This document shows, in pieces, positions 13,039-63,904 of a DNA stretch of 64,000 bases. The notes under the pieces are model-generated. The model worked only from the letters and a program-made list of their open reading frames with translations. It made no database searches and had not been told where the DNA came from. The stretch is from Anaerolineae bacterium. Lineage in GTDB: Bacteria; Chloroflexota; Anaerolineae; B4-G1; SLSP01. The position numbers were made by a program, and so were the translations under genes. The first letter of the stretch is position 1. Every line of letters starts with the position of its first letter. The stretch spans positions 30,369 through 94,368 of the forward strand of contig DAOTVC010000106.1 of the NCBI GenBank assembly GCA_034437215.1, in the 5' to 3' direction.

Positions 13039-13884
13039 ATGCCTGGCCCCGCCGGTGCGAGACCTGCCTCGCAGGGGCGTAGCGAGGAGCGGGCCATCGT
13101 TCACTTCGGCAGGATTGAGCGTGTCGACTACGCTGGGCCTCTCTGGGAGGTGGAGGGCATTCACCCCCGCCTCAAGGTTCACCTGGCGGCCCGCGACCGC
13201 CTCGTCGTGTTGGCTCACGGATCGCCGCCCTACGCCGTCGTCCTGGGTGTGCCCCACCACTCCGCCGTCGGGCACGGGCAGCTCTGCGAGAGGCGTCTCG
13301 ACCGCGAGGGACGGCCCAATCCCCGGGTCTCCGACGAGGCCACGGCCCCCTACGCGTTGGTCGCTTTGGAGGCCCTGCGGCGGGAGGGCGTGCCCGCCCG
13401 GCTCGTGGTCATGGCTCACGCCACCACCCACGATCCTAACAAGCACGCCCGGAGCCCCTACACCTGCGCTCTCTTCGAAGAGCCCGTCGCTCTCCTCTTC
13501 GAGTGCCACGGGTCGGGGCCCCGCCGCGCCCTCCCGCTGGAGCTGAGCGCGGGGAACAATCCCCTCGCCGACCCCCTGCGCTGCGGGCGGGCGCTGGCGG
13601 AGACGTTGGAGCGCCGCTACGCCCTGGGCGTACAGCGGGAACCGGGGACCCGGGAGGCCCTCATCTTCCACCCCGACGGCTCAGAGATGCCGGGCCGGCT
13701 ACAACTCTCGGCGCGCCGCACCCTCTCCCTCGTGGAGGCAGGACGCCTGGGTATCCAGGCCCTGCACCTCGAGGCCAAGCCGCGCTTCCGCACCCCCCGC
13801 GGCAGCGAGTTGGGCCTGACGCCGGAGGGGCGCTTTCTCGGTCAGGCCATCGCCCGTGCCCTCGTGCGGTATCTTGATGGATAA
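13039..13884 (+). CDS. Hypothetical protein, possibly a zinc-hydrolase-like fold; function unknown
   Basis: High-GC3 frame, preferred over the overlapping 12926..13546 frame. His-rich motifs HGSPPY, GVPHHS, HATTHD, ECHGSG. The start is ambiguous: ATG 13039 or TTG 13024. Confidence 0.35.
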   Translation: MPGPAGARPASQGRSEERAIVHFGRIERVDYAGPLWEVEGIHPRLKVHLAARDRLVVLAHGSPPYAVVLGVPHHSAVGHGQLCERRLDREGRPNPRVSDEATAPYALVALEALRREGVPARLVVMAHATTHDPNKHARSPYTCALFEEPVALLFECHGSGPRRALPLELSAGNNPLADPLRCGRALAETLERRYALGVQREPGTREALIFHPDGSEMPGRLQLSARRTLSLVEAGRLGIQALHLEAKPRFRTPRGSELGLTPEGRFLGQAIARALVRYLDG

Positions 13885-13896
13885 GGGAACAGAGAT

Positions 13897-13916
13897 GAGG
13901 GATTGGGGATCAGGGG
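13897..13916 (+). repeat. G-rich GGGATTGGGGATCAGGGG repeat (GGGGATT family)
   Basis: Read directly. The same motif family is at 20163..20209 and 63782..63813. Confidence 0.45.
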
Positions 13917-19483: not shown

Positions 19484-20170
19484 ATGAAAAACGAGAGAGG
19501 GTTCGGGCCCGTCCTCATCGCCCTGGCGGCGGTCGCCTTTCTGGCGGCCCTGGGCATGGTCTTCTACTACGCGCCCCGCGAGGCGACGATGGGGGAGGTG
19601 CAGCGCATCTTCTACTTCCACGTGGCCTCGGCGTGGGTGGGCTTCTTCGGCTTCTTCGTCACCTTCGTGGGGAGCGCGGGCTACCTCCTGAGCGGGCGGC
19701 GCCCGTGGGACGTCCTGGCTCTCTCCTCGGCAGAGGTGGGGCTAGTCTTCATCACCATGACGCTGCTCACCGGCATGCTCTGGGCGCGCCCCGTCTGGGG
19801 CACCTACTGGACCTGGGAGCCGCGCCTGACCATCTCGGCGGTGCAGTGGCTCATCTACGTGGCCTACGTCATGGTGCGGGGTTCCGTGGAGAGCCGGGAG
19901 CGGAGCGCGCGCTTCGCCGCCGTCTACGGCATCGCCGCCTTCGTCACCGTCCCCCTCTCCTGGTTCGCCATACGCTGGTGGCGGACCATCCACCCGCAGA
20001 TCATCGGCGGCGGGGAGATGGCCCTCACCCCGCAGATGCTCCACACCCTCTTCGCCTCCATCGGCGCCTTCACCCTCCTCTACGCCGCCTTCCTCCTCTA
20101 CCGCGTGCGCCTGGAGCGCGCCCGGGACCGCTTGGCGGCGCTGCGGGGGCGGCGGGGTCGTCGGGGATGA
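19484..20170 (+). CDS. ccmC: Heme exporter protein CcmC
   Basis: Trp-rich WWD motif WGTYWTWEPRLT. Multi-TM. Confidence 0.75.
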   Translation: MKNERGFGPVLIALAAVAFLAALGMVFYYAPREATMGEVQRIFYFHVASAWVGFFGFFVTFVGSAGYLLSGRRPWDVLALSSAEVGLVFITMTLLTGMLWARPVWGTYWTWEPRLTISAVQWLIYVAYVMVRGSVESRERSARFAAVYGIAAFVTVPLSWFAIRWWRTIHPQIIGGGEMALTPQMLHTLFASIGAFTLLYAAFLLYRVRLERARDRLAALRGRRGRRG

Positions 20171-20209
20171 GGGATTGGGGACTGGGGATTGGGGATTGGG
20201 GATCAGGGG
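20101..20209 (+). repeat. Extended G-tract run ending in a (GGGGATT/GGGGACT)n array
   Basis: Read directly: gggggcggcggggtcgtcggggatgagggattggggactggggattggggattggggatcagggg. It overlaps the ccmC 3' end and stop. The complementary CCCTGATCCCT repeat occurs twice at 20294..20327, so a long-range inverted arrangement exists. Confidence 0.5.
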
Positions 20210-23826: not shown

Positions 23827-23924
23827 TACCTTGGTACTCTACGAGATCTCGTGGTTCACACTATTGTGAACGTGAAAATCTTGTTGCCTAGAGCGTTTCG
23901 GGATGTCAGGGGTGTAAATCTTTT

Positions 23925-24227: not shown

Positions 24228-24983
24228 ATGAAGATCACGGCTGTGATGGGCAGCCCTACCAAGGATGGCAACACCTGCGTTCTGGCGCGGGAGGTGCTGC
24301 GAGGCGCCGCCGACGCCGGGGCCGAGGTCGACGAGATCTTTCTCGCCGAGCACCGGATCGAGTTCTGCCGCGGCTGCATCAGCAGGAACATGACGACGAA
24401 CTGCATGGCCTCGGGAGCGTGCGTCATTCCGGACGACGTGAACGCGCTGCGCCGGCGGCTCTACGAGAGCGACGGCATCGTTCTGGCCTCGCCATCGTAC
24501 GGCATCAAGCCTACGGCGCGCATGAAGAACTTCATCGTCGACCGCATTGGGATGTACACGGCCTACACCTCCGGCCTGGGGGGCAAGTACTTCGTGGGCG
24601 TCTCCACCTGCGGCGGCATCGGCGCCAATCGGGTGGCCCGGGAGCTGGCGGAGGACTTCGTCGCCGGCTTCCACAGACGGGGCTACTCTACGGGCTCCAT
24701 CGGCGTCAAGTTGGGCCGGGACAGGATCGAGGAGCGACCCGAGGAGCTGGCGAAGGCCTACCGCCTGGGCCGGCGCCTCGTCGAGGATATTCAGATGGAG
24801 CGGAAGTACCCTTTCCAGAAGCTCTTCGATCGGGCGATGACGGCCCTCGTCGTCAGGCGTCTCATCCTGCGCAACATCTACCAGAACCGGGAGGGGATGA
24901 TGCGGGCGGTCTACGAGAACCTGCTCGAGCGGGGGTTGATCCGTCCCGCGGGCAACGGGCATGGGGGGAGTCAGTATGTCTGA
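24228..24983 (+). CDS. Flavodoxin-like NAD(P)H-dependent FMN reductase / iron-sulfur flavoprotein family protein
   Basis: N-terminal MKITAVMGSPTKDGNT... motif of the FMN_red family. Cys cluster CRGC...C. RBS TAGGAGGA. Confidence 0.6.
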   Translation: MKITAVMGSPTKDGNTCVLAREVLRGAADAGAEVDEIFLAEHRIEFCRGCISRNMTTNCMASGACVIPDDVNALRRRLYESDGIVLASPSYGIKPTARMKNFIVDRIGMYTAYTSGLGGKYFVGVSTCGGIGANRVARELAEDFVAGFHRRGYSTGSIGVKLGRDRIEERPEELAKAYRLGRRLVEDIQMERKYPFQKLFDRAMTALVVRRLILRNIYQNREGMMRAVYENLLERGLIRPAGNGHGGSQYV

Positions 24984-25644
24984 AACAGGGGAGTACGTCA
25001 CGTCACAGAGCGCACCGACCGGAGTAGAGGAGGACGATCGGGAGTACAGCGAGACCGCCCTGCGCATCATCGAGGCGGCGGCGAAGCTCTTCTCGGAGCA
25101 CGGTTACGATGGGGCGACGACGCGGGCCATCGCCGCCGAGGCGGGCGTCAACGAGGTGACCATCTTCCGCAACTTCGGGAGCAAGGAGAACCTGCTGCTG
25201 GCCGTTGTCGAGCGCTTCTCGGCGCTGCCGCGCCTGGGGGAGGCCTTCGCAGCGCAGGTCAGCGGTGACTACCGCCAGGATCTGCTGCTCATCGGTCGCC
25301 ACTACCTGGAGATGCTGCAGCGCAATCTTCGCCCCATCCTCATGACCATCTTCGAGGCGCAGCGCCTGCCCGAGGTACGGCGGATCATCGCTCGCCCTCC
25401 CGCCCGGCAGCGGCGGATGCTGGGCGAGTACCTGCGCCGGCAGATGGAGCAGGGGGTGGTGCGCGAGCTTCCCGACCCGGAGCTCACCGCCCAGGCCTTC
25501 TTCGGCATGTTCTTCGAGTACAGCCTGGGGCGGAACCTGATCGACGAGGAGGGCACAGACCTCTCGATGGAGGAGGTGGTCGAGCACTTCGTCGACCTCT
25601 TCGTGGGGGGCACGCTTCGCCGGGAGGGCGATGCCTGCTGTTGA
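24976..25644 (+). CDS. TetR/AcrR family transcriptional regulator
   Basis: HTH region ETALRIIEAAAKLFSEHGYDGATTRAIAAEAGVNEVTIFRNFGSKENLL. Overlaps the end of the upstream gene, consistent with an operon. Confidence 0.8.
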   Translation: MSETGEYVTSQSAPTGVEEDDREYSETALRIIEAAAKLFSEHGYDGATTRAIAAEAGVNEVTIFRNFGSKENLLLAVVERFSALPRLGEAFAAQVSGDYRQDLLLIGRHYLEMLQRNLRPILMTIFEAQRLPEVRRIIARPPARQRRMLGEYLRRQMEQGVVRELPDPELTAQAFFGMFFEYSLGRNLIDEEGTDLSMEEVVEHFVDLFVGGTLRREGDACC

Positions 25645-26096
25645 CCTCTCTGCGCGCCGTTCTATACTCTTCGAGAAGGTGGGGTGGGTCAGGGGTGAGG
25701 GAGGTGGGGTGGTGTCGGAACGCCCGGAGTACGGACGTGGAGGCGTCTATCATCTCTATAATCGTGGTGCACATCGGCTCTCTGTCTTCCGTGAGCCGGA
25801 GAACTACTACTTCGTGCTTCGCAAGATGAAACGATACTGCTATCAGTTTGATCTTACTCCACTGGCTTACTGTTTATTGCCCAATCACTATCCCTGTAGT
25901 GCATGGGTTAGTTGATGATCTAGAGAAGTGGCCTTACTCTAACTATTTGGAGTGGATTGGAGAGCGTGACGGCAGTCTTGTGGATCGAGAGTTTATCAAA
26001 AGTTACTTTGAAACATCGGAAGCGTATCGACGTTACGTTAACGATTATCTAGCAAGATGTAGAACACTAGATGGATTGGATTATTTAGATACTTGA
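25631..26096 (+). pseudogene. Frameshifted IS200/IS605-like REP-associated tyrosine transposase (RAYT, Y1 HUH transposase) remnant
   Basis: Frame 1 reads ...GGVYHLYNRGAHRLSVF...LAYCLLPNHY, the HUH region broken after NHY. Frame 2 continues ...WPYSNYLEW..., the catalytic-Tyr region. The frameshift is near 25895. Local GC is far below the genome background. Confidence 0.5.
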
Positions 26097-26106
26097 TGCA
26101 ACAGGC

Positions 26107-26131
26107 GGGACGCACCTTGGAGGTGCGTCCC
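26107..26131 (+). other. Perfect 10-bp hairpin GGGACGCACC ttgga GGTGCGTCCC
   Basis: Read directly. No T-run follows. It sits between the RAYT remnant and the aldolase gene. Confidence 0.3.
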
Positions 26132-26149
26132 ACCTGACAGGAGGCAAGC

Positions 26150-26788
26150 ATGCTAGAGAACGCACGGCAGGAGATCATCCACTTCGGGAAGCAGCTGATC
26201 ACCTCCCACCTGACGACGGGGTCGGGAGGGAATCTGAGCCTCTGTGACCGCGAGCGCGGCCTGGTCGCCATCAGCGCCAGCGGCCTGGACTACTTCGCGA
26301 TGACGCCCGAGGACATCGTCGTCACCGACCTGGAGGGGCAGCCCGTGGAGGGAGAGCGCAAGCCCTCCAGCGAGCTGGGCTTCCACCTGGCCCTCTACCA
26401 CGCCCGGCCCGACGTCGCCGCCGTCGTGCACACCCACTCCGTCTACGCGACGACCATCGCCTGCCTGAACTGGGAGCTGCCCGCCGTGCACTACCTCGTC
26501 GGCTTCTCGGGCAACAAGGTCCCCCTCTGCCCCTACGCCCCTTTCGGCACCCGGGAGCTGGCGGAGAAGATCGCGCGCTCCATCGGGGGGTACAACGCCC
26601 TGCTGATGGCGAATCACGGCCTGGTGACGGTGGGGCCGACCCTCGCCCGGGCCTTCGCCGCCGCCGAGGAGATCGAGCTGGTAGCGCAGATCTACTACCA
26701 GGCCAAGGCCATCGGCGAGCCCGTCATCCTCTCCGACGAGCAGATGGAGGTCGTGCTGGAGAGGTTCAAGTCCTACGGGCAGAAGTAG
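26150..26788 (+). CDS. Class II aldolase/adducin family protein (fuculose-phosphate aldolase / ribulose-5-P 4-epimerase-like)
   Basis: Metal-binding His pattern (HTHSVYAT, ANHG). Length typical of the family. RBS GGAGG. Confidence 0.7.
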   Translation: MLENARQEIIHFGKQLITSHLTTGSGGNLSLCDRERGLVAISASGLDYFAMTPEDIVVTDLEGQPVEGERKPSSELGFHLALYHARPDVAAVVHTHSVYATTIACLNWELPAVHYLVGFSGNKVPLCPYAPFGTRELAEKIARSIGGYNALLMANHGLVTVGPTLARAFAAAEEIELVAQIYYQAKAIGEPVILSDEQMEVVLERFKSYGQK

Positions 26789-31990: not shown

Positions 31991-34900
31991 ATGAGAATGG
32001 AGATCCCGGTGGATACACCGCAAATCCTGTTTATCATCGCCTCCTTTGTTATTGGTATCGCGCTCGTCGTCTTTGCCGTATTGGCCTGGCGTCGTCGCCA
32101 CGTTCATAGCAGCGCTCAGTTCATCGCCCTGTTGCTCACGGCAGGTGCCGTTTGGGCCATGGCCTACGCCTTCGAGCTGGTGAGCCCCACGCTTCCCCTG
32201 AAGACCTTCTGGACCAAAGCCACCTACCTGGGTTCGGTCCCCATCACCGTCTCCTGGTTCTTCTTCGCCCTCAACTACAGCGGACGCCGCTCGTGGTTGG
32301 AGAGCAAGTGGATCCGGCTTATCTTCATCGTGCCTGTCATCACCTTGCTCGGGGTCTGGACCTATCCTCTGCAGAAACTCTACTGGACCTACGTCACCCT
32401 CGAGCCGGGTGGGGCGTTGTACTCCGTGGATACCGGGCAGGGGCCCCTCTACTGGGTCCATCACTTCTACTCCTATCTGTTGGTCATGGGCGGGATCTTC
32501 CTGATGGCGCAGACCGCCTTTCAGGTCCGCCGCCACTACCGCATCCAGACGTTGGTCATTCTGGGCGCGGTCATCTTCTTCCTGGTACGGAACATCCTCT
32601 TCCTCCTGGGATTCGAGTCGATCCTGGCGCTGCAGCTCTTCTCCGGTGTGCTGACCTTGGGAACGGTCGTGGCAATCTGGGTGATGTACACCCGTCGCTT
32701 CCCCAACGTCGTACCCGTCGCCCGCTCCACGGTGGTGGAGAGCATGGATGACGCCGTGGTCGTCCTCGACGAGCAGGGGCAGGTCGCGGACTTCAACATC
32801 GCGGCGCGGAAGATCTTGAAGCTTACCGATGAGGATCTTGGGCTTCCGGTCGAAGAGATCTTTGCCGATCATCCGCGGTTGCTCGATGCCTGCCGGAAGG
32901 AGAACGAACAGCGTGAGATTCGGCTGGGTGAGACCGGTGAACAGAGATCTTACGAACTGCGGCTCTATCCCTTCTATGGAAGACAGGATCAACGGGCCGG
33001 GCGTCTGATGGTGCTCGACGACATCACCGCTCAGAAGAGGACGGAGATGGCGCTGCGCCGGCAGCTGGAAGAACTGCAGGTGTTACACGGCGTTGCGATA
33101 GCGGGCGCCCAGACCCGCAACGAAGGTCTGCTCATCGAGCAGGCCACAGCTCTAATCGGCGAGACCCTCTATACCGACAGCTTTGGGGTTCTGCTTGTAG
33201 ATGAAGAGGCGCAGGTTCTTCGCGCGCACCCCTCCTACCGCCAGCGCTCCGGGGCAGAGATCGACCCCGTTCCGCTGGGCGAGGGGATTGCCGGCAGCGT
33301 GGCCGTCGACGGTCGGCCCCGGCGCGTGGGCAACGTTCTGGAGGCGCCGAGCTATATCAGCAGTGACCCCGAGACCCGCTCGGAGCTCTCCGTGCCCCTG
33401 CAGACGGGAGAGCGCATCATCGGGATCGTGAACGTGGAGAGTGTGCACCCCAACGCCTTCACAGAAGCGGACGAGCGGTTGCTGATCACCTTTGCCGGCC
33501 AGCTGGCGACGGCTATCGAGAGAGCGCGCCTCTCGGAGGCCGAGCACGACACTTTGGAGCGCATTCGGGCCCTCTACGAGGTCGCCAGCTCCCTCATCGC
33601 GTCGCCCGAACCCCTGCGCGTTTTGGACACCGCGGTAGAGGATGCAGCGCGCGCCCTGGGAGCCGATCACGTAGTCCTTGCCGTCAACAAGGGGGAGTAC
33701 GACCCTCCAGAGCTACGGTTGGGCGGGCAGGGAGGGATGCTGCCTCCCGCCTCGGAGCGTCTGTGGCACGCGCTTCACCAACGGGTACTCCAGACTCTGA
33801 AGCCGGAGCGGGTGATCCGGGAGCGGGATGATCACGGTACGCCTCTGGGATCCATGATCGTCGTCCCCCTCAGCTACCACGGCGCGATGCGGGGCACTCT
33901 CTCGGCCTTGAAGTACTCCGATGAATCCAGTTTCACGCAGGCGGATCAGAATCTCTTGGAGGCGATGGCCAATCAGATCGCGGTTGCCGTGGAGAACGCG
34001 CACCTCTTCAAGACCTTGGAGTATCGCGTGGCCGAGTTACAGATTCTGCAGCAGACAAGTCTGGAGTTGACGGCTTCGCTGGAGCTCTCCGCCGTGCTCG
34101 AGCGGATTGCCGAGCACGCTCTCAGCCTGGTGAAGGCCTACACCTGCAGCCTTTACCTCTTCGATGCCCAGAGCGGGGAGTTCGATTTCGGTCTCTCCCT
34201 GCGTCAGGACGGGTGGCGGGAGCGCGTGGAGCGCGCGCCCCGCTCCGAGGGGTTGACGATGACGGTGGTCCGACAGGGGGAGCCGCTCATCATCAGTGAC
34301 GTCTTTCACCACTTCCTCTTTGCCTCTCCCGAGGCCCAGGCGCTGGGGCTCCGGGCCATCGCCGGCTTCCCGCTTACACGGGGGGAGCGCGTGCTGGGTG
34401 TGCTGACCGTCTCCTATCTGACCCCGCACACCTTCACGGAGGCCGAACTGCGCATCCTCGGTCTGCTCGCCAGTCAGGCTGCCATCGCCATCGAGAATGC
34501 CCACCTCTTTGAGGAGACGGAGCGCCTGAAGCACTTCAACGAGAACATCGTTCAGGGTGTGGCCGAGGCCATCCTGATCGAGAATGCGGAGGGCCACTTC
34601 GTCTTCGCCAATCCTGCGGGTGAGACTCTTCTCGGTTACGGCGAGGAGGATCTCGTGGGGATGCACTGGAAGGATCTCGTGCCGCCCGGGGAGTATGAGA
34701 AGATAGAGAGAGAGTGGCAGAAGCGGGAGAAGGGTGTCGGCAGTCGCTACGAGACGGTGCTGCTGGACCGCTGGGGCCAGGAGGTACCGGTCATCATCAG
34801 TGCTCGCCCGCTCTTCGAGGGCGACGCTTACGCCGGGGTGCTGGTGGCCCTGATGGATATCACGGAGCGCAAGGCCGTGGAGGAGGAGCGCGAGCGCCTG

Positions 34901-35599
34901 ATCCGGGAGCTGGATGCCTTCGCTCACACCGTCGCCCATGACCTCAAGACCCCGCTCAATGCCCTGCTGGGATCGGCGGAGATCCTGCACGACGAGCACA
35001 GATCGCTCTCTCCCAAGGAGATGAAGATCATCACCGGAGGGGTCGAGCAGAGCGTCTCGAAGATGCTCAGCATCATCGACGAGCTCCTGCTGCTAGCCAG
35101 TGTGCGCAAGCAGCAGGAGGTGCAGCTGCGCCCCCTGGAGATGGGGCACATCGTCGGCGATGCCTTGGAGCGGTTGCACTACGTGATCAAGGAGTCGGAC
35201 GCCCGTATCGAGGTGGCGGAGAGCTGGCCCCAGGTCCGCGGTTACGGCCCCTGGGTGGAGGAGGTCTGGGTCAACTACATCAGCAATGCCATCAAGTATG
35301 GGGGGGAGCCTCCCGAGGTTGAGTTGGGATTTGACGCTCTCGAGAACGACGGGGTGCGTTTCTGGGTCCGTGATAACGGGCAGGGCATTGCTGAGGAGGC
35401 GCAGCACGATCTCTTCACCCCCTTTACCCGCCTGGGACAGGTGCACGCTACAGGTTCGGGGTTGGGCCTCTCCATCGCCAGGCGCATCGTGGAGCGCTTG
35501 GGGGGCGAGGTCGGCTTGGAGAGCGCGCCCGGCGAGGGGAGCCGCTTCTGGTTCACTCTGCCCCCAGCATCTGATGACGAGCCCGGGGAGGAGTCCTAA
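31991..35599 (+). CDS. Large sensor histidine kinase: 7TM sensor, PAS, multiple GAF domains, PAS, HisKA, HATPase_c
   Basis: 1,202 aa. N-terminus paralogous to the other two HKs. H-box AHDLKTPLNAL. HATPase motifs DNGQGI and GSGLGLSI. Confidence 0.8.
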   Translation: MRMEIPVDTPQILFIIASFVIGIALVVFAVLAWRRRHVHSSAQFIALLLTAGAVWAMAYAFELVSPTLPLKTFWTKATYLGSVPITVSWFFFALNYSGRRSWLESKWIRLIFIVPVITLLGVWTYPLQKLYWTYVTLEPGGALYSVDTGQGPLYWVHHFYSYLLVMGGIFLMAQTAFQVRRHYRIQTLVILGAVIFFLVRNILFLLGFESILALQLFSGVLTLGTVVAIWVMYTRRFPNVVPVARSTVVESMDDAVVVLDEQGQVADFNIAARKILKLTDEDLGLPVEEIFADHPRLLDACRKENEQREIRLGETGEQRSYELRLYPFYGRQDQRAGRLMVLDDITAQKRTEMALRRQLEELQVLHGVAIAGAQTRNEGLLIEQATALIGETLYTDSFGVLLVDEEAQVLRAHPSYRQRSGAEIDPVPLGEGIAGSVAVDGRPRRVGNVLEAPSYISSDPETRSELSVPLQTGERIIGIVNVESVHPNAFTEADERLLITFAGQLATAIERARLSEAEHDTLERIRALYEVASSLIASPEPLRVLDTAVEDAARALGADHVVLAVNKGEYDPPELRLGGQGGMLPPASERLWHALHQRVLQTLKPERVIRERDDHGTPLGSMIVVPLSYHGAMRGTLSALKYSDESSFTQADQNLLEAMANQIAVAVENAHLFKTLEYRVAELQILQQTSLELTASLELSAVLERIAEHALSLVKAYTCSLYLFDAQSGEFDFGLSLRQDGWRERVERAPRSEGLTMTVVRQGEPLIISDVFHHFLFASPEAQALGLRAIAGFPLTRGERVLGVLTVSYLTPHTFTEAELRILGLLASQAAIAIENAHLFEETERLKHFNENIVQGVAEAILIENAEGHFVFANPAGETLLGYGEEDLVGMHWKDLVPPGEYEKIEREWQKREKGVGSRYETVLLDRWGQEVPVIISARPLFEGDAYAGVLVALMDITERKAVEEERERLIRELDAFAHTVAHDLKTPLNALLGSAEILHDEHRSLSPKEMKIITGGVEQSVSKMLSIIDELLLLASVRKQQEVQLRPLEMGHIVGDALERLHYVIKESDARIEVAESWPQVRGYGPWVEEVWVNYISNAIKYGGEPPEVELGFDALENDGVRFWVRDNGQGIAEEAQHDLFTPFTRLGQVHATGSGLGLSIARRIVERLGGEVGLESAPGEGSRFWFTLPPASDDEPGEES

Positions 35600-37135: not shown

Positions 37136-37156
37136 CCTCACTCAGGAGCGTGCGCT

Positions 37157-38284
37157 ATGCAGAAACTTTCGATTGGCTTCCCTCGCATGCACAAGGAAGC
37201 GGGGGAGGTGCGGGACTTCCTCCCGCGCTTGATGCACCGCCTGGCACCGTTAGCGCGGCAGATCGTTGTCGAGGAGGGCAGCGGTGCGGGGATGGGGATC
37301 CTGCCCGAGAAGTACCTCGGCGCGGGCGACAACGTGCGCTTCGGCACCAACGCCGACTGCTACCATCAGGAGATCGTCGTCCAGGTGCGCTCTCCCGAGG
37401 ATCGCGAGCTGCCCCGGATGCAACCGGGGACGGTGCTCTTCTCCATGCTTCACTACAACACCCATCCGTGGCGGGTGCGCCTGCTCCAGGAGTTGGGGAT
37501 ACGCCCGCTCTCCATGGATAGCATCGTCGACGACGACGGTGTGCGCCTCGTCGAGAACATTCAGGGGACGAGCTGGAATGCCATCTGGGCCGGTTTTCGC
37601 GCGCTGCGCAAGACCTACCCGGACTTCGAGCGACCGGGGCGCCGGCCCATCCGCGTCCTCATCGTAGGGGCCGGCGCGGTCGGGCGCTTCGCCGCCGAGG
37701 CCGCGGCGAAGTACGGCGACGAGCAGCTCGCTCAGGGTCTTCGCGCCCAACACCTCACTCCCGTCATCGCCTCCCTCATCGAGCGGAGTGTCACCGCCAA
37801 TGAGCCGGTGCTGATCGAGGAGCTGGCCCGCGCCGACGTGTTCGTCGACGCTACCTCGCGGCGTGATCCCACCCAGTATATCTTCCGCAACGAGCTCCTC
37901 GGTTACCTCCCGGAGCACGCGGTCGTGGTGGACCTGGCCGCCGATCCCTACATCAACCTCAGCGCTACGGAGCCCCTCCAGGTGAAGGCCATCGAGGGCA
38001 TCCCCACGGGCGATCTGGACGAGTACGAGTTCCCGCGAGATCATCCCGCCTTCAACCGGCTCCCCGACGGCGTGGATACCCGGCAGCGGCGCAGGACGGT
38101 GAGCTGCTACTCCTGGCCCGGGCTCAAGCCCCTGAAGTGTATGAAGCGCTACGGTCGTCAGGTGCAGCCCTTCCTGGAGCTGCTCTTCACGAAGCCCTGG
38201 GATGACTTCTGCCCCCAGGACAGCAACTACTTCGAGCGGGCGCTCTGCCGGGGTAAGTTGCATGGCTCGGTAGAGAGGAGGTAG
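37157..38284 (+). CDS. AlaDH/PNT-like NAD(P)-binding dehydrogenase (alanine dehydrogenase / CEOS / saccharopine dehydrogenase superfamily), paralog 1
   Basis: N-terminal SIGFPRMHKEAGEVRDFLP resembles the AlaDH N-terminal signature. Rossmann motif VLIVGAGAVGRFAAEAA. A paralog sits at 41203..42381. Confidence 0.45.
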   Translation: MQKLSIGFPRMHKEAGEVRDFLPRLMHRLAPLARQIVVEEGSGAGMGILPEKYLGAGDNVRFGTNADCYHQEIVVQVRSPEDRELPRMQPGTVLFSMLHYNTHPWRVRLLQELGIRPLSMDSIVDDDGVRLVENIQGTSWNAIWAGFRALRKTYPDFERPGRRPIRVLIVGAGAVGRFAAEAAAKYGDEQLAQGLRAQHLTPVIASLIERSVTANEPVLIEELARADVFVDATSRRDPTQYIFRNELLGYLPEHAVVVDLAADPYINLSATEPLQVKAIEGIPTGDLDEYEFPRDHPAFNRLPDGVDTRQRRRTVSCYSWPGLKPLKCMKRYGRQVQPFLELLFTKPWDDFCPQDSNYFERALCRGKLHGSVERR

Positions 38285-41087: not shown

Positions 41088-41202
41088 TCACCATTGCTCG
41101 AGGATAGAGAAAGAAGCGGGGCCTTCGCCTTTCACCTGCTCGCACTCGAAGTGTGATAGAATGGGGGAAGACAATCGCTCTCACCCTCAGGAGGTGTTTA
41201 TG

Positions 41203-42381
41203 AATTCACTCTCGGTCGGTTTTCCCCGCATGCACAAGGAGCCCGGTGAGGTACGGGACTTCCTGCCCCGCCTGATCCACCGGCTGTCGCCGCTGGCCCG
41301 CGAGGTCGTGGTGGAGGAGGGAAGCGGTGCGGGGGTGGGGATCGACCCTCAGAAGTACGTCCGCGGCTGCGACAACGTGCACTTCGGCACCCATCAGGAG
41401 TGCTACGATCAGGATATCGTCGTCCAGGTGCGCTCCCCCGAGGACGAGGAGTTGGAGCGCATGAAGCCCGGCACCATCCTCTTCGCCATGCTGCACTACC
41501 CTACCCATCCGAGCCGCGTGCGCCGGATGCACGACCTGGGGCTCCTGCCCATCTCCATGGACAGTGTGGTGGACGAGGACGGGACGCGCCTCATCGAGAA
41601 CATTCGCGGTACCAGCTGGAACGCCGTCTGGGCCGGTTTTCGCGCCCTCCGCAAGACCTATCCGGCTCTGGAATCCCCGGAGCGCGAACCCCTCAGGGCA
41701 GTCGTGATGGGCACCGGGCCCGTCGGTCGCTACGCAGCGGAGTCCGCGACCAAGTACGGCGACGTGGCCCTGCACCTCGATCTGCTGGCGCACGACGTGC
41801 CTGGCGTCGTCGTGAACCTGATCGGACGCAACGTGACCCGGCACCAGCGCCACTTGCGGGCGTTGCTGGAGAGGGCCGACGTCTTCGTGGATGCCACCTT
41901 CCGCGCCGACCCTACGCGCTTCATCGTGCCCAACGCGCTGGTGGGCGCTCTGCCGCAGCACGCCGTCGTCGTGGACGCCACTGCCGATCCCTACATCACC
42001 GATACCGACCCCATCCAGGTGAAGGCCATCGAGGGTATCCCCACCGGTGATCTCGACGACTACGAGTTCTCTCCCGACCACCCCGCCTTCGATCGGCTGC
42101 CCCCTGCCGTGAGCACGGAGAACCGGCGCCTGACCGTCAGCTGCTACTCCTGGCCCGGTCTCAAGCCCGTGGAGTGCATGCGGCGCTACGGACGGCAGCT
42201 CTACCCCTTTCTCCAGATCCTGCTGCGCCGCCCCTTTGAGACCTTGGTGGACAGCCAAAGCTACTTCGAGGCGGCCCTCTATCGCGGAACCCTCAACCAC
42301 TATCTCGAGGAGGAGCAGCGGGGCTTTTACCATCGCGCCGCCGCCACAGGGGCGATCTTCAGAGAAGGGGAGGGGTCCTGA
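41203..42381 (+). CDS. AlaDH/PNT-like NAD(P)-binding dehydrogenase, paralog 2
   Basis: About 60% amino-acid identity with 37157..38284, and long identical nucleotide runs (for example atcgtcgtccaggtgcgctc). AGGAGG RBS before the MNSLSVGFPRMHKE start. Confidence 0.45.
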   Translation, partial: NSLSVGFPRMHKEPGEVRDFLPRLIHRLSPLAREVVVEEGSGAGVGIDPQKYVRGCDNVHFGTHQECYDQDIVVQVRSPEDEELERMKPGTILFAMLHYPTHPSRVRRMHDLGLLPISMDSVVDEDGTRLIENIRGTSWNAVWAGFRALRKTYPALESPEREPLRAVVMGTGPVGRYAAESATKYGDVALHLDLLAHDVPGVVVNLIGRNVTRHQRHLRALLERADVFVDATFRADPTRFIVPNALVGALPQHAVVVDATADPYITDTDPIQVKAIEGIPTGDLDDYEFSPDHPAFDRLPPAVSTENRRLTVSCYSWPGLKPVECMRRYGRQLYPFLQILLRRPFETLVDSQSYFEAALYRGTLNHYLEEEQRGFYHRAAATGAIFREGEGS

Positions 42382-42531: not shown

Positions 42532-45500
42532 GTGCCCTGGCAGTTCAATCCCTATAGCCTCTTCTTGATTGTGACGGCTGCCCTGGCTGCGGGCCTGGTG
42601 GTGGCCTGTTGGCGCCGCCGACCTCTGCCCGGCGCCGCGGCCTTCAGCGTGGTCATGCTGGCCCTGCTCGTCTGGTCCCTTGCCTACGGGATGGCTCTCG
42701 CTCACTCCACTCCTGAGGTGAAGGAGCGCCTCATCCGCCTACAGTACCTGGGCGTCGTTACGGCTCCGATCGCCTGGTTCCTCTTCGCGTTGGGATATAC
42801 CCGGCAGGATCTGTGGCTCTCCCCGCGTATCTACATCCTGCTGGCCGTGGAGCCCCTCCTCTTCCTCCTGTTGTTGGCGACGAACGACAGCCACGCCTTG
42901 GTCTACGAGGGGGTGATTCTCACCGACATGGGCAGCTTTTCCACGCTGCAGTGGGACGAAGTAGGCTGGGCCTTCTGGATGCACTCTGTGTACTCCTACG
43001 GTCTGTTGACCGTGACCAGCTACCTTATCATCCGGGCCTTCATTCTTTCGCCAGGGCTCTACCAGGGGCAGATCCTGCTGCTCATCGTCGCTGCCTTCGC
43101 TCCCTGGATCGGAAACGCTCTCTACCTCTTTGGCGTCAGCCCCTACGTCGATCCTACCTCCTTCGCCTTCCTCCTGACGGGTATCCTGGTGACCCTGGCT
43201 CTCTACCGCTTCCGTCTGCTGGATATCGTCCCGGTGGCCCGCCATGCGGTGATGGAAGATCTGAGCGACGGGATCATCGTGCTCGATAGTCGCAACCGCG
43301 TCGTGGACCTCAATCCGGCGGCGGAGGAGATGATCGGGGTGAGCGCCGGCGAGGCCATCGGGCAGCGGGGGATGCACGTGCTGGCTGCCTGGCCCCAGTT
43401 GGTGGACAAGTACCGGGAGCGAAAGCATGCGCACGACGAGATCCTCGTGGAGCGCCAGGGGGAGGTGCGGGCCTACGATCTGCGCATCTCTCCCCTGCGT
43501 CGTGGAGGAGGTCGGATCGAGGGGCGTCTCGTCGGGCTGCGCGACATCACCGAGCGCAAGCTGGCGGAGGAGGCCCTGCGGACCCGGGAGCACTTCCTGG
43601 CCTCCCTCAGTGAGATCACCGAAGCTGCTCTCGAGACACCTGATCTGCAGACCATGGTCCAGACCTTGGCGGACCGCCTGGGCGAGCTCTTCGGCGCCGA
43701 TGGCTGCTATTTGGTGCTCTGGGATGAGGAGAGGCGCCAACCCCGGCCCGCCGCAGCCTTGGATATCCCTCAGGAGGTCTACCGGACGAGGACGATGGAG
43801 ATCGGAGAGGTGGCGTTGATTTCTAAGACGCTGGCGGAGGAGCGTCCCCTCGTCATCGAGGACACCACCCGGATCTCTTATCTCGTGGAACGGGAGACCC
43901 CCCTTTTCCCCGGTCACTCTCTGCTGGGACTGCCCTTGATCGCTGACGGGCGTAAGCTGGGCGCCGCTATCATTGCCTTTGAGCGCCCCCGTTCTTTCAA
44001 GGCCGAGGAGGTAGCGCAGGCGGGGCAGGTCTCCCGGCACCTCGCCCTGGCCCTGGCGAAGGTCAAGATGCTGGATTCCGAGCGCTTCGCCCGGGAGCGG
44101 ACGGAGGCCCTCTACCAGTTCACGAGCTCCCTGCTCACCCACGAGGATCTGACGCAGGCCCTGCAGACGGTGGCGCGCGAGATGGCCGAGCTGCTTCTGG
44201 CGGATCGGGTCCTCATCGTCACCCTCGATCTGGAGGGGCGGCGGATTCTGAAAGCGGTGCTGGAGGGCAGGGGAGCCACGCCCCTCGTCCCCTTCTCCTT
44301 CGAGGAGTTGGAGGAGGGGTTGGTGGGCTGGGTGCTCCGGGAGCGGGAGGCGACCCTCTCGCCGAAGGGACGACCGGATGCTCGGGAGAGTGCCGCTGTG
44401 CGGCGGCGGAGGGCCGAGTTCAAGTTGGGGGCGCTGATGGTCGCGCCCCTGCGTTACCGCGGACGGAGCCTGGGGGCCGTCGTCGCCATAAATAGGCTGC
44501 AGGACCCCGACTTCACCGAGCACGATCTGGCACTGCTCGCCGCCGTCAGCAACCAGGCTGCCGTCGTTATCGACGATATACGGCTCTACGAGGAGACGGC
44601 CCGGCTCAAGGTCTTCAACGAGAACATCCTCCAGAGCGTGGGGGAGATTATCCTGCTGGAGGACGAGAACGGGCGTTTCACCTTCGTCAATCCTGCTATT
44701 GAGGAGGTGCTGGGCTACGTGCCCGAGTCCCTGCTGGGCCAGAGTTGGGAGCTCCTCCTCCCCAAGCGGGAGTGGGCGCGTGTTCGAGAGGAGTCCAGGC
44801 GGCGGGAGCAGGGGCTGGCGGGCCGTTACGAAACCCTGGCTTGCGCCAGCGACGGGCGCGAGGTGCCCCTGATCGTCAGCGCTCGTCCGCTCTTCCAGGA
44901 GGGGCGCTTTGCCGGCACCATCTCCGCCGTCACCGACATCACCGAGCGCAAGCGGGTGGAGGAGGAGCGCGAACAGTTGATCGAGGACCTGGACGCCTTC
45001 GCCCACACCGTGGCTCACGACCTCAAGACCCCTCTCACGCTCATCGTCGGCGCGGCCCGTCTTCTGCAGAAGAACATCGACCTCGAGAACCGGACCCTCC
45101 ACTATCTGACCGACTCCGTCGTCCGCGGGGGCAACAAGATGAGCAACATCATCGACGAGCTCCTCTTGCTCTCGAGCGTGCGGGAAAAGGCGGATATCAC
45201 CTTCGAGACCTTGCAGATGGACGCCATCGTCGCCGAGAGCCTGGATCGCCTGCAGGGGCTCATCGAGGAGCGCGGCGCTCAGATTCAGCTGCCGGAGAGC
45301 TGGCCTGTGGCGCGTGGATACGGCCCCTGGGTAGAGGAGATCTGGGCCAACTACATCAGCAACGCCATCAAATATGGAGGGGATCCGCCCGTGGTGGAAC
45401 TGGGGGGCTCTCTCTGCAACGGGGAGGGAGCGGCAGGCGCCCGCTCTTACGCACGCTTCTGGGTGCGGGACAATGGGAAGGGGATCAGCGAGGAGGAACG

Positions 45501-45687
45501 CCAACGGCTCTTCACCCCCTTTACTCGTCTGGGACAGGTGAACGTCAGCGGGCACGGTCTGGGCCTCTCCATCGTTCAACGCATCGTCCAGCGCCTCAAC
45601 GGACAGGTCGAAGTCCGCAGCGAGCCCGGTGTGGGGGCGGAGTTCAGTTTCATCCTTCCCGCAGACGAGGCGGTACTCTCGCGGTAG
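42532..45687 (+). CDS. Sensor histidine kinase: 7TM sensor, PAS, GAF, GAF, PAS, HisKA, HATPase_c
   Basis: 1,051 aa. GTG start. H-box AHDLKTPLTLI. HATPase motifs DNGKGI and GHGLGLSI. The C-terminal third closely parallels the HK at 31991. Confidence 0.8.
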   Translation: MPWQFNPYSLFLIVTAALAAGLVVACWRRRPLPGAAAFSVVMLALLVWSLAYGMALAHSTPEVKERLIRLQYLGVVTAPIAWFLFALGYTRQDLWLSPRIYILLAVEPLLFLLLLATNDSHALVYEGVILTDMGSFSTLQWDEVGWAFWMHSVYSYGLLTVTSYLIIRAFILSPGLYQGQILLLIVAAFAPWIGNALYLFGVSPYVDPTSFAFLLTGILVTLALYRFRLLDIVPVARHAVMEDLSDGIIVLDSRNRVVDLNPAAEEMIGVSAGEAIGQRGMHVLAAWPQLVDKYRERKHAHDEILVERQGEVRAYDLRISPLRRGGGRIEGRLVGLRDITERKLAEEALRTREHFLASLSEITEAALETPDLQTMVQTLADRLGELFGADGCYLVLWDEERRQPRPAAALDIPQEVYRTRTMEIGEVALISKTLAEERPLVIEDTTRISYLVERETPLFPGHSLLGLPLIADGRKLGAAIIAFERPRSFKAEEVAQAGQVSRHLALALAKVKMLDSERFARERTEALYQFTSSLLTHEDLTQALQTVAREMAELLLADRVLIVTLDLEGRRILKAVLEGRGATPLVPFSFEELEEGLVGWVLREREATLSPKGRPDARESAAVRRRRAEFKLGALMVAPLRYRGRSLGAVVAINRLQDPDFTEHDLALLAAVSNQAAVVIDDIRLYEETARLKVFNENILQSVGEIILLEDENGRFTFVNPAIEEVLGYVPESLLGQSWELLLPKREWARVREESRRREQGLAGRYETLACASDGREVPLIVSARPLFQEGRFAGTISAVTDITERKRVEEEREQLIEDLDAFAHTVAHDLKTPLTLIVGAARLLQKNIDLENRTLHYLTDSVVRGGNKMSNIIDELLLLSSVREKADITFETLQMDAIVAESLDRLQGLIEERGAQIQLPESWPVARGYGPWVEEIWANYISNAIKYGGDPPVVELGGSLCNGEGAAGARSYARFWVRDNGKGISEEERQRLFTPFTRLGQVNVSGHGLGLSIVQRIVQRLNGQVEVRSEPGVGAEFSFILPADEAVLSR

Positions 45688-53010: not shown

Positions 53011-53290
53011 ATATCGCTTGGGTGTGTTTCAAAAGTTGGCTCTACTGAAATAACTCTATTTCACCACGGAGGACACAGAGAACACTGAGAAAATCATGGA
53101 GATTCTTATGAAAGTTAAACCTAAAGTGCATTTCGTAGAGTTTAACATCAAAAAATCTCCGTGGTCTCCGTGGTAAGAGATCTTTTTTCAGCGGAGTCAA
53201 AGTTATGAGCTATCATGGCTGAAACGTCAGGCGTGAAACGGAGGGCTTCACGCTTTACGCTTCACGTTTCACGCTGCGGTTCACTTCTCA
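53011..53290. repeat. Decayed copy of the GTGAAACG-core element seen at 59820: left end intact, about 170 bp AT-rich internal insertion, right terminal repeat deleted
   Basis: Read directly. Left end ttgggtgtgtttcaa. Core gctgaaacgtcaggcgtgaaacg...cacgtttcacgc is collinear with 59866..59925. The junction ggtt|cac lacks the 30-nt right-end segment present at 59.9 kb. Confidence 0.45.
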
Positions 53291-59819: not shown

Positions 59820-59958
59820 AATTCAGTTGGGTGTGTTTCAATCCAGTTGTGAGCTATCCGTAGCTGAAACGTAAAGCGTGAAACGTGAGGGCCTCACGGT
59901 TTACGTTTCACGTTTCACGCCTCGGTTTAACTCAAGTGAAACACACCCAATTCAGTTC
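59820..59958. mobile_element. MITE-like / REP-doublet element: about 14-bp terminal inverted repeats TTGGGTGTGTTTCA/TGAAACACACCCAA, flanked by an ATTCAGT direct repeat, with internal GTGAAACG palindromes
   Basis: Read directly: aattcagttgggtgtgtttca...gtgaaacgtgagggcctcacggtttacgtttcacgtttcacgc...tgaaacacacccaattcagtt. No ORF. Sits 4 nt after the korB stop. Confidence 0.55.
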
Positions 59959-63724: not shown

Positions 63725-63781
63725 GGTTATCCTCCTTTCAAAAACTGGTGAGCAGTGAGAGGTGAACGGAGAGAAAGGCTC

Positions 63782-63813
63782 AGGGATTAGGGAGCCGGGA
63801 CTGGGGATTAGGG
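63782..63813 (+). repeat. G-rich GGGATTAGGG-type repeat (same family as 13897 and 20163), followed by a CT-rich TTCTCAC tract
   Basis: Read directly: cagggattagggagccgggactggggattaggg, then ...ctctctctcctctcttctcacttctgacttctcac. Confidence 0.4.
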
Positions 63814-63904
63814 CTTAACACCGCAGCCTTGCTCCTCACACCGGGCCTCTCACGAGTGTCACCTCTCTCTCCTCTCTTCTCACTTCTGACTTCTCACTAC
63901 TCCG

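Follow-up and report, generated by a model that had tools for sequence, protein, structure and literature searches.

An internally deleted RAYT pseudogene and a single REP palindrome upstream of an aldolase-like gene in an uncultured Anaerolineales bacterium

Our analysis of a 64,000-nt stretch of DNA from an uncultured Anaerolineales bacterium (hereafter the window) identifies positions 25712 to 26096 of the forward strand, with a probability of roughly 90%, as a RAYT pseudogene, the remnant of a Y1 HUH nuclease gene of a clade frequent in Anaerolineae and Chloroflexota, whose catalytic core was lost through an internal 188-nt deletion. The locus represents a familiar type in decayed form and is an ordinary pseudogene. 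An initial annotation had described it as an inactive RAYT-type transposase of the Y1 (HUH) family. The type is borne out by full-length homologues, with E values down to 5e-46, and the inactivity by the deletion of the second HUH histidine and the catalytic tyrosine.

The two motif strings on which that annotation was built are indeed encoded on the forward strand in two different frames, AYCLLPNHY at 25865-25891 and WPYSNYLEW at 25929-25955. The start that had been placed at 25631 belongs to a spurious ORF whose first codons still lie in the TetR-family gene upstream (24961-25644, stop codon at 25642-25644), at its 3' end, and homology sets in at a GTG at 25712. Downstream of the relic lies a fuculose-phosphate-aldolase-like gene, whose ATG at 26150 is preceded by GGAGG. 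A promoter-like site, TTGACC-16 nt-TATACT (25641-25668, forward strand, 10/12 matches), overlaps the TetR stop codon and is located upstream of both the relic and the aldolase gene; it is the sole such site within 25400-26400 and can be considered a candidate promoter. It is followed by a G-rich leader, GGGTGGGTCAGGGGTGAGGGAGGTGGGGTG (25682-25711, forward strand), in which a GGAGG can be read before the GTG start, and leader and relic together form a haplotype-specific cassette of 405 nt (25682-26086, forward strand).

Regarding the family assignment, both halves of the relic match Y1_Tnp/RayT proteins of about 190 aa from Anaerolineae and Chloroflexota. In tblastn searches with the intact homologue P0001, residues 1-60 mapped to 25712-25891 (E 1e-25) and residues 124-186 to 25893-26081 (E 1e-23, 65% identity). 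Segment A (25712-25891, forward strand) comprises codons 1-60, from VVSERPEY to AYCLLPNHY, with 68% identity to P0001, and segment B (25893-26096, forward strand) comprises the C-terminal third, from PVVHGLV via WPYSNYLEW to DYLDT and the stop codon, corresponding to P0001 from residue 124 up to its C-terminus. A search of the protein collection returned 277 proteins at E<=0.01. Among the matches listed, the best are about 160-205 aa long and mostly carry PF01797 (a single entry, of 94 aa, is the ORF of the relic itself), the IMG name is often 'REP element-mobilizing transposase RayT', and the homologues that bear an organism name come from Anaerolineae or Chloroflexota. The genome loci of the best 80 intact homologues cover Anaerolineae, Caldilineae, Cyanobacteria, Ignavibacteria, Bacteroidota and Planctomycetota.

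Profile searches have to be read with the size of the remnant in mind. Neither relic ORF nor the joined ORF of 128 aa matches Pfam PF01797 at E<=10. The initial annotation held that the absence of a Y1_Tnp match after frameshift repair would count against it, and the joined ORF gives precisely this result; however, the match is missing because so little of the domain remains and, since the full-length homologues are unambiguous, we do not count the Pfam result against the family assignment. In this regard, the four intact homologues scanned score 28-36 bits with PF01797 (gathering score 23), and the relic derives from a member of this family yet fails the model itself. With the NCBIfam model NF047646 (REP_Tyr_transpos) the relic reaches 21.7 bits (E 1.5e-4), below the equivalog cut-off of 80 bits, and the four intact relatives reach 59-79 bits, slightly under the same cut-off; these four matched no other NCBIfam model, and no IS200-type model at E<=0.001. 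Within the 64 kb of the window there is no further RAYT-like sequence besides the relic. Ten NCBI-sourced homologues were considered as possible intact paralogues of the same MAG, and none bears an accession of the window's assembly; the window's own genome is also absent from the genome contigs that provided the best 80 intact-homologue loci. As these findings cover 64 kb of the genome, an intact paralogue and more REP copies may exist outside it.

The lesion is not the simple frameshift that had been proposed. Residues 1-60 and 124-186 of P0001 map to neighbouring DNA only 1 nt apart, with the gap visible in the alignment (A1), so that 63 codons are gone and a single base (c) is left at 25892 on the forward strand, where the frame shifts by +1. 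The missing 188 nt correspond to 63 codons less 1 nt, and one internal deletion of this length has joined codon 60 to the codon matching P0001 residue 124, with a +1 shift of frame.

To place the catalytic residues, the family profile of intact homologues was aligned to E. coli TnpAREP (PDB 4er8, E 4e-7), whose active site comprises Y115, H59-M60-H61, N119 and H123 (PMC3479197). In this alignment the family's P-N-H-Y-H corresponds to P-E-H59-M60-H61, and C-R-Y-I-H-A-N-P to V-D-Y115-I-Y-I-N119-P. Taken with the published active site, the deletion spans the equivalents of TnpAREP H61 through N119, which means that the second metal-binding histidine, the nucleophilic tyrosine (Y115) and a further metal ligand (N119) are gone from the relic, and the equivalents of P120-H123 fall within segment B. 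The HUH motif, reported earlier as present, is therefore incomplete: LLPNH-Y retains the first histidine and the hydrophobic residue, but the second histidine, equivalent to H61, is the first residue deleted. Likewise, WPYSNYLEW had been taken for the catalytic-tyrosine region, but its counterpart in TnpAREP is WPFSTF, which follows the catalytic helix. The tyrosine itself, on helix alpha-D, resides in CRYIHANP, where it aligns with Y115, and lies inside the 63-codon gap. No active HUH nuclease can be made from the locus, and neither reading frame nor the conceptually repaired product is able to cleave DNA.

An assembly artefact can be discarded as the origin of the gap. The junction sequence is the same in the window, in GCA_046541445.1, with its 99.8% identity to the window across 12 kb, and in a contig from Logan (SRR19844289); since three independent assemblies share this junction, the deletion is real. 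Two strains differ by 25 SNPs across 12 kb, 3 of them inside the 385 nt of the relic, which may be taken as a weak sign of relaxed constraint. Both segments lack internal stop codons, and their 60-70% amino acid identity to homologues equals the similarity of intact members to each other. The deletion may therefore be recent, or one segment may still be under selection, and, on the same grounds, long neutral decay is not behind the low GC content of the relic.

Six nucleotides past the relic's stop codon lies an unstranded palindrome, CAGG-C-GGGACGCACCT-tgg-AGGTGCGTCCC-A-CCTG (26102-26136), which ends 3 nt ahead of the GGAGG and 13 nt ahead of the ATG of the aldolase gene (26150). As DNA it folds with -18.8 kcal/mol (z = -5.1). 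It occurs once in the 64-kb window, even with up to 3 mismatches allowed, and does not qualify as a dispersed repeat within that stretch. Its sequence, ACAGGCGGGACGCACCTtggAGGTGCGTCCCACCTGA, can be compared with those found at two of the closest intact relatives of the relic, whose RAYTs are about 60-70% identical to it: at locus L003 near-identical palindromes, TCAGGTGGGACGCACCTcggAGGTGCGTCCCACCTGA, stand on both sides of the intact gene, and at locus L167 (protein P0005) AGGCGGGACGCACTTccaAAGTGCGTCCCACC lies directly 3' of it. Since near-identical palindromes accompany these two RAYTs, the GGGACGCACC palindrome at 26102-26136 would be the cognate REP of this RAYT lineage. On the 5' side of the relic there is no REP hairpin, and the G-rich stretch at 25682-25711 is found instead; it may be a decayed 5' REP arm (AGGTGGG...), to which it bears a weak resemblance.

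The same arrangement is found throughout the relic's intact relatives. At most of the 80 genome loci taken for flank comparison, which are those of the best 80 intact homologues, a near-perfect palindrome of about 33 nt (3-nt loop, stem of about 15 bp) stands in one copy on either side of the gene, its sequence varying by lineage; extra palindrome copies or arrays are also present near intact RAYT loci. Where flanks were adequate (69 loci), the two 250-nt flanks had a 14-mer or longer in common at 50 of the 69 intact loci, as against 0 of 59 pairs of control segments located 1.25 kb farther out. This clade has the defining RAYT layout.

The repeats that the initial annotation had attributed to the relic are of another kind. 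The octamer GTGAAACG has 10 matches in the window (0.9 expected), 9 of which lie in three intergenic, heptamer-periodic palindromes that fold well (about 2282-2326, 53216-53290 and 59866-59935); the tenth is a lone match within an ORF-dense stretch (44674-44681). None of these palindromes in the window adjoins a Y1 gene, and no flanking hairpin of the best 80 intact homologues contains GTGAAACG. The octamer occurs in 9 of 84 homologue loci, singly in 8 of them, and is not enriched. We therefore reject GTGAAACG as the REP of the relic RAYT and find the proposed link between enzyme and repeat unsupported, the cognate REP being GGGACGCACC. Another RAYT elsewhere in the genome could possibly serve the GTGAAACG family.

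The composition of the relic is distinctive, although it says little about its origin. Its GC content is 0.449, compared with 0.652 for the window, which places it 20 GC points under its surroundings, and GC3 is 0.53 in segment A and 0.32 in segment B compared with 0.81-0.96 in four neighbouring genes. The earlier description of an AT-rich patch holds, but its background of about 68% GC does not, the window having 65%. The patch had been regarded as consistent with horizontal acquisition; however, intact genes of the family are AT-richer than their own locus in 74 of 78 loci, by 7 points on average and by up to 20 points (Ca. Amarolinea). A low GC content, being a trait of the family, therefore says little in favour of recent transfer.

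The spacer between the TetR and aldolase genes provides a further view of the locus. Three JGI contigs (L083, L084 and L165) represent a close relative, with 95% nucleotide identity in the aldolase gene and 93% in TetR; this sister haplotype is listed under JGI 3300037830, 3300037848 and 3300037318. Contigs L084 and L165 have the same TetR-aldolase order and the same TTGACC-16-TATACT; in L083 the sequence ahead of the aldolase gene is 225 nt long and stops short of TetR and of the promoter-like site. The same REP precedes the aldolase RBS in all three, with the loop triplet reverse-complemented (TGG in one haplotype versus CCA in the other), and in place of the stretch between 25681 and 26087 of the window these contigs have about 215 nt of unrelated, hairpin-rich DNA. 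No significant similarity was detected between the interiors of the two haplotypes. The shared right flank starts at AGATACTTGAT (11 nt), whose last 10 nt are the end of the relic ORF (GAT ACT TGA). A more decayed RAYT copy in the sister haplotype was considered and discarded: tblastn detected no RAYT sequence in the three contigs, and the roughly 70 nt that MAFFT aligned ahead of AGATACTTGAT did no better than shuffles, so that replacement is preferred. Searching with the aldolase protein led to no orthologous locus that still has an intact RAYT: the best relatives are 71-72% identical and lack synteny; these distant loci (71-72% amino acid identity or less, on metagenome contigs) have no TetR neighbour, RAYT or REP. 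Rfam reported nothing relevant, either for the whole window at the gathering threshold or for the spacer of both haplotypes at E<=1.

We propose the following sequence of events. The common ancestor with the sister haplotype would have carried the RAYT and its REPs at the TetR-aldolase site. The sister lineage would later have swapped the gene body, keeping the last 10 nt of the ORF and the REP, and in the window's lineage the RAYT/REP system would be extinct or nearly so. The relic would now be passive 5'-leader DNA between the promoter-like site at 25641-25668 and the aldolase gene, and the REP may incidentally affect the aldolase mRNA.

Other readings of the locus deserve consideration. The one first put forward, a near-complete RAYT/IS200-type gene with a simple frameshift that keeps both the HUH motif and the catalytic tyrosine and acts as the enzyme of the GTGAAACG REPs, could draw on the two motif strings in two frames and on the over-representation of the octamer and its concentration in three intergenic palindromes. 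Its probability is close to negligible, given the loss of 63 codons with the second HUH histidine and the catalytic tyrosine, the joined ORF devoid of a PF01797 match, a flanking REP of the GGGACGCACC type that is common to intact relatives, and GTGAAACG palindromes that have no Y1 neighbour in the window and no counterpart in the hairpins of the best 80 intact homologues. It is likewise highly improbable that the relic stems from a mobile IS200/IS605 insertion sequence (TnpA) recently inserted by horizontal transfer rather than from a domesticated RAYT. The low GC3 would suit such an insertion, as would the sharply bounded presence/absence polymorphism among close relatives and the fact that the sister haplotype and the closest homologue, P0001, stem from one metagenome series. 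Intact relatives share PF01797 with IS200/IS605 TnpA, and the same catalytic chemistry is expected of them. However, the four intact homologues scanned match REP_Tyr_transpos alone, the proteins, about 190 aa long, carry at the C-terminus the WPxSNY extension that typifies TnpAREP (4er8 has WPFSTF), and relatives are flanked by two identical copies of one palindrome instead of distinct left and right ends. Neither at L167 nor in the window is there an adjacent tnpB, the sister haplotype is no empty site, having retained the REP along with the ORF's last 10 nt (AGATACTTGAT), and low GC is general in the family, even among intact genes in high-GC hosts.

A third reading holds that the relic has been kept for a function, either as a 67-aa N-terminal fragment that binds DNA or is dominant-negative, or as a REP hairpin and leader acting in cis on the stability or attenuation of the aldolase mRNA. 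A 67-aa ORF does exist at 25712-25915 (stop codon included), behind the RBS-like GGAGG and GTG start that precede segment A. The promoter-like site upstream is conserved, both segments are free of stops, the REP is present in both haplotypes directly before the aldolase RBS, and a passage of PMC3479197 states that REPs influence mRNA turnover. Still, the first 60 residues amount to a partial HUH fold with one histidine as the sole catalytic ligand, the sister haplotype is entirely without the relic, and the relic shows, if anything, a raised density of SNPs. The REP as an intrinsic terminator was considered and rejected, as no T-run and no terminator-like site follow the hairpin. We found no support for translation of the fragment at 25712-25915 and judge functional retention very unlikely. 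Finally, the spacer could be an exchange site that received a foreign, low-GC RAYT and REP cassette, later swapped in the sister lineage with the REP as a recombination anchor, in which case RAYT/REP units would move horizontally. The REP of the window matches, in 34 of 37 nt, the REP of an Anaerolineae MAG with a RAYT of only about 60-65% identity. We consider this unlikely; if true, RAYT/REP units of the Chloroflexota clade would be mobile as units, against the prevailing view of RAYTs as strictly vertical and domesticated, and retention of the REP might serve the mRNA of the downstream aldolase. The reading we favour remains that of a RAYT pseudogene disabled by an internal deletion.

Read as such a pseudogene, the relic belongs with the RAYT/TnpAREP proteins (E. 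coli YafM, PDB 4er8), reportedly described by Nunvar in 2010, Bertels and Rainey in 2011 and Messing in 2012. It shares with them the Y1 HUH fold family, as indicated by the profile match to 4er8, and the setting, in that its intact relatives stand between copies of a short GC-rich palindrome also found elsewhere nearby and the relic itself retains one palindrome directly 3' of its stop codon. It differs in that the copy in the window lacks the equivalents of H61, Y115 and N119, is frame-shifted and has one REP copy in 64 kb. Differences also concern the clade as a whole, whose REPs, with 3-nt loops and near-perfect stems of about 15 bp, differ from the imperfect ones of E. coli, and whose intact members, at 59-79 bits, stay under the NCBIfam equivalog cut-off of 80 for the RAYT model. 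Bertels et al. 2017 (PMC5581495) report RAYT Group 4 as frequent in Cyanobacteria, Chlorobia and Caldilineae, a taxonomic spread similar to that of the homologues found here; this likeness is one of taxonomy alone and a lead only. Disabled or lost RAYTs accompanied by shrinking REPIN populations have been described, with a frameshifted RAYT in Neisseria gonorrhoeae and loss of the RAYT in Pseudomonas chlororaphis and E. coli (bioRxiv 10.1101/2021.07.10.451892). The locus resembles this end state of the RAYT/REPIN life cycle, with a disabled RAYT and few or no cognate REPs (one within 64 kb), but its lesion is a large internal deletion, not a frameshift or premature stop, and its host, unlike these three species, is an uncultured Anaerolineales bacterium.

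For annotation purposes, the appropriate entry is an internally deleted RAYT pseudogene plus one orphan REP; the locus should be listed neither as a repairable frameshifted transposase nor as the enzyme behind the GTGAAACG palindromes. Beyond this locus, our findings indicate that the Y1 proteins of Anaerolineae and Chloroflexota labelled 'RayT' or 'transposase' have the layout of a gene between two REPs, that these REP sequences are lineage-specific, and that the genes are systematically AT-richer than their hosts, so that low GC alone should not be taken for a sign of recent horizontal transfer in this family. Together, a dead RAYT and a single surviving REP are consistent with the published decay of REPINs after RAYT loss, and extend it to an uncultured Chloroflexota lineage.

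Low GC content is a common property of RAYT genes in the clade to which the relic, the RAYT pseudogene at 25712-26096, belongs. In 74 of 78 loci from the set carrying intact homologues (L003-L082), the RAYT gene has a lower GC content than the rest of its own locus, with a mean difference of -7 GC points. These AT-richer genes include intact ones in hosts of about 69% GC, as is the case of locus L065 (Ca. Amarolinea).

Regarding the genomic context of intact homologues, locus L167 (4366-13754) bears an intact RAYT, P0005, within a type I restriction-modification operon, flanked by an HsdS-like gene on one side and an HsdR-like gene on the other. One REP copy lies directly 3' of P0005 and another about 1.5 kb upstream. 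Additionally, tandem REP-hairpin arrays are found upstream of the RAYT gene in some relatives (L024 2406-2962; L017 2151-2301), the best example being L024, in which paired hairpins recur about every 180 nt.

The sister haplotype contig L084 carries, at 870-1085, a spacer of DNA unrelated to that of the window and containing long perfect hairpins (GATTGATTGTGCGGCGCtacaGCGCCGCGCAATCAATC; and CCCCCTCCCC...GGGGAGGGGG), likewise in L165 and L083. An Rfam search with this spacer gave nothing above threshold, and no counterpart of it was found within the window. In addition, the central loop triplets of the REP in the window (26118-26120) and in L084 (around 1112-1118) are reverse complements of each other (CTTGGAG vs CTCCAAG in context), with conserved stems. 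The reversed triplet suggests either a flipped palindrome or an oppositely oriented REP copy. A well-matching sigma-70-like promoter (TTGACC-16-TATACT) is predicted at 25641-25668, overlapping the TetR stop codon and also kept in the sister haplotype; it is probably the promoter of the downstream aldolase gene.

Other repeats are present in the window. A G-rich family of heptamer-like units (GGGGATT, GGGGATC or GGGGACT) occurs in four places within three regions (13875-13916, 20168-20209 and 63752-63814). Two pairs of diverged direct repeats, with 74-80% identity, are spaced by about 10.08 kb (34847-35424 and 44926-45521) and 4.04 kb (37156-38184 and 41199-42221), and are probably paralogous genes, those of the first pair being sensor-kinase-like.

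Finally, the octamer GTGAAACG, proposed in the initial annotation as the REP family served by the enzyme lineage of the relic, occurs 10 times in the window against 0.9 expected. All copies but one fall within three intergenic imperfect palindromes of tandem heptamers (2282-2326, 53216-53290 and 59866-59935), built from GTGAAAC, GTAAAGC and CTGAAAC units and the mirror form GTTTCAC, with DNA folding z-scores of -3.7 to -6.8; related GTTCAC/GTGAAC motifs appear around 23845-23880. These palindromes have no sequence kinship with the REP of the relic, and no Y1 transposase gene adjoins them in the window. They may be a second REP family, an array of sites bound by a protein, or elements of some other kind.
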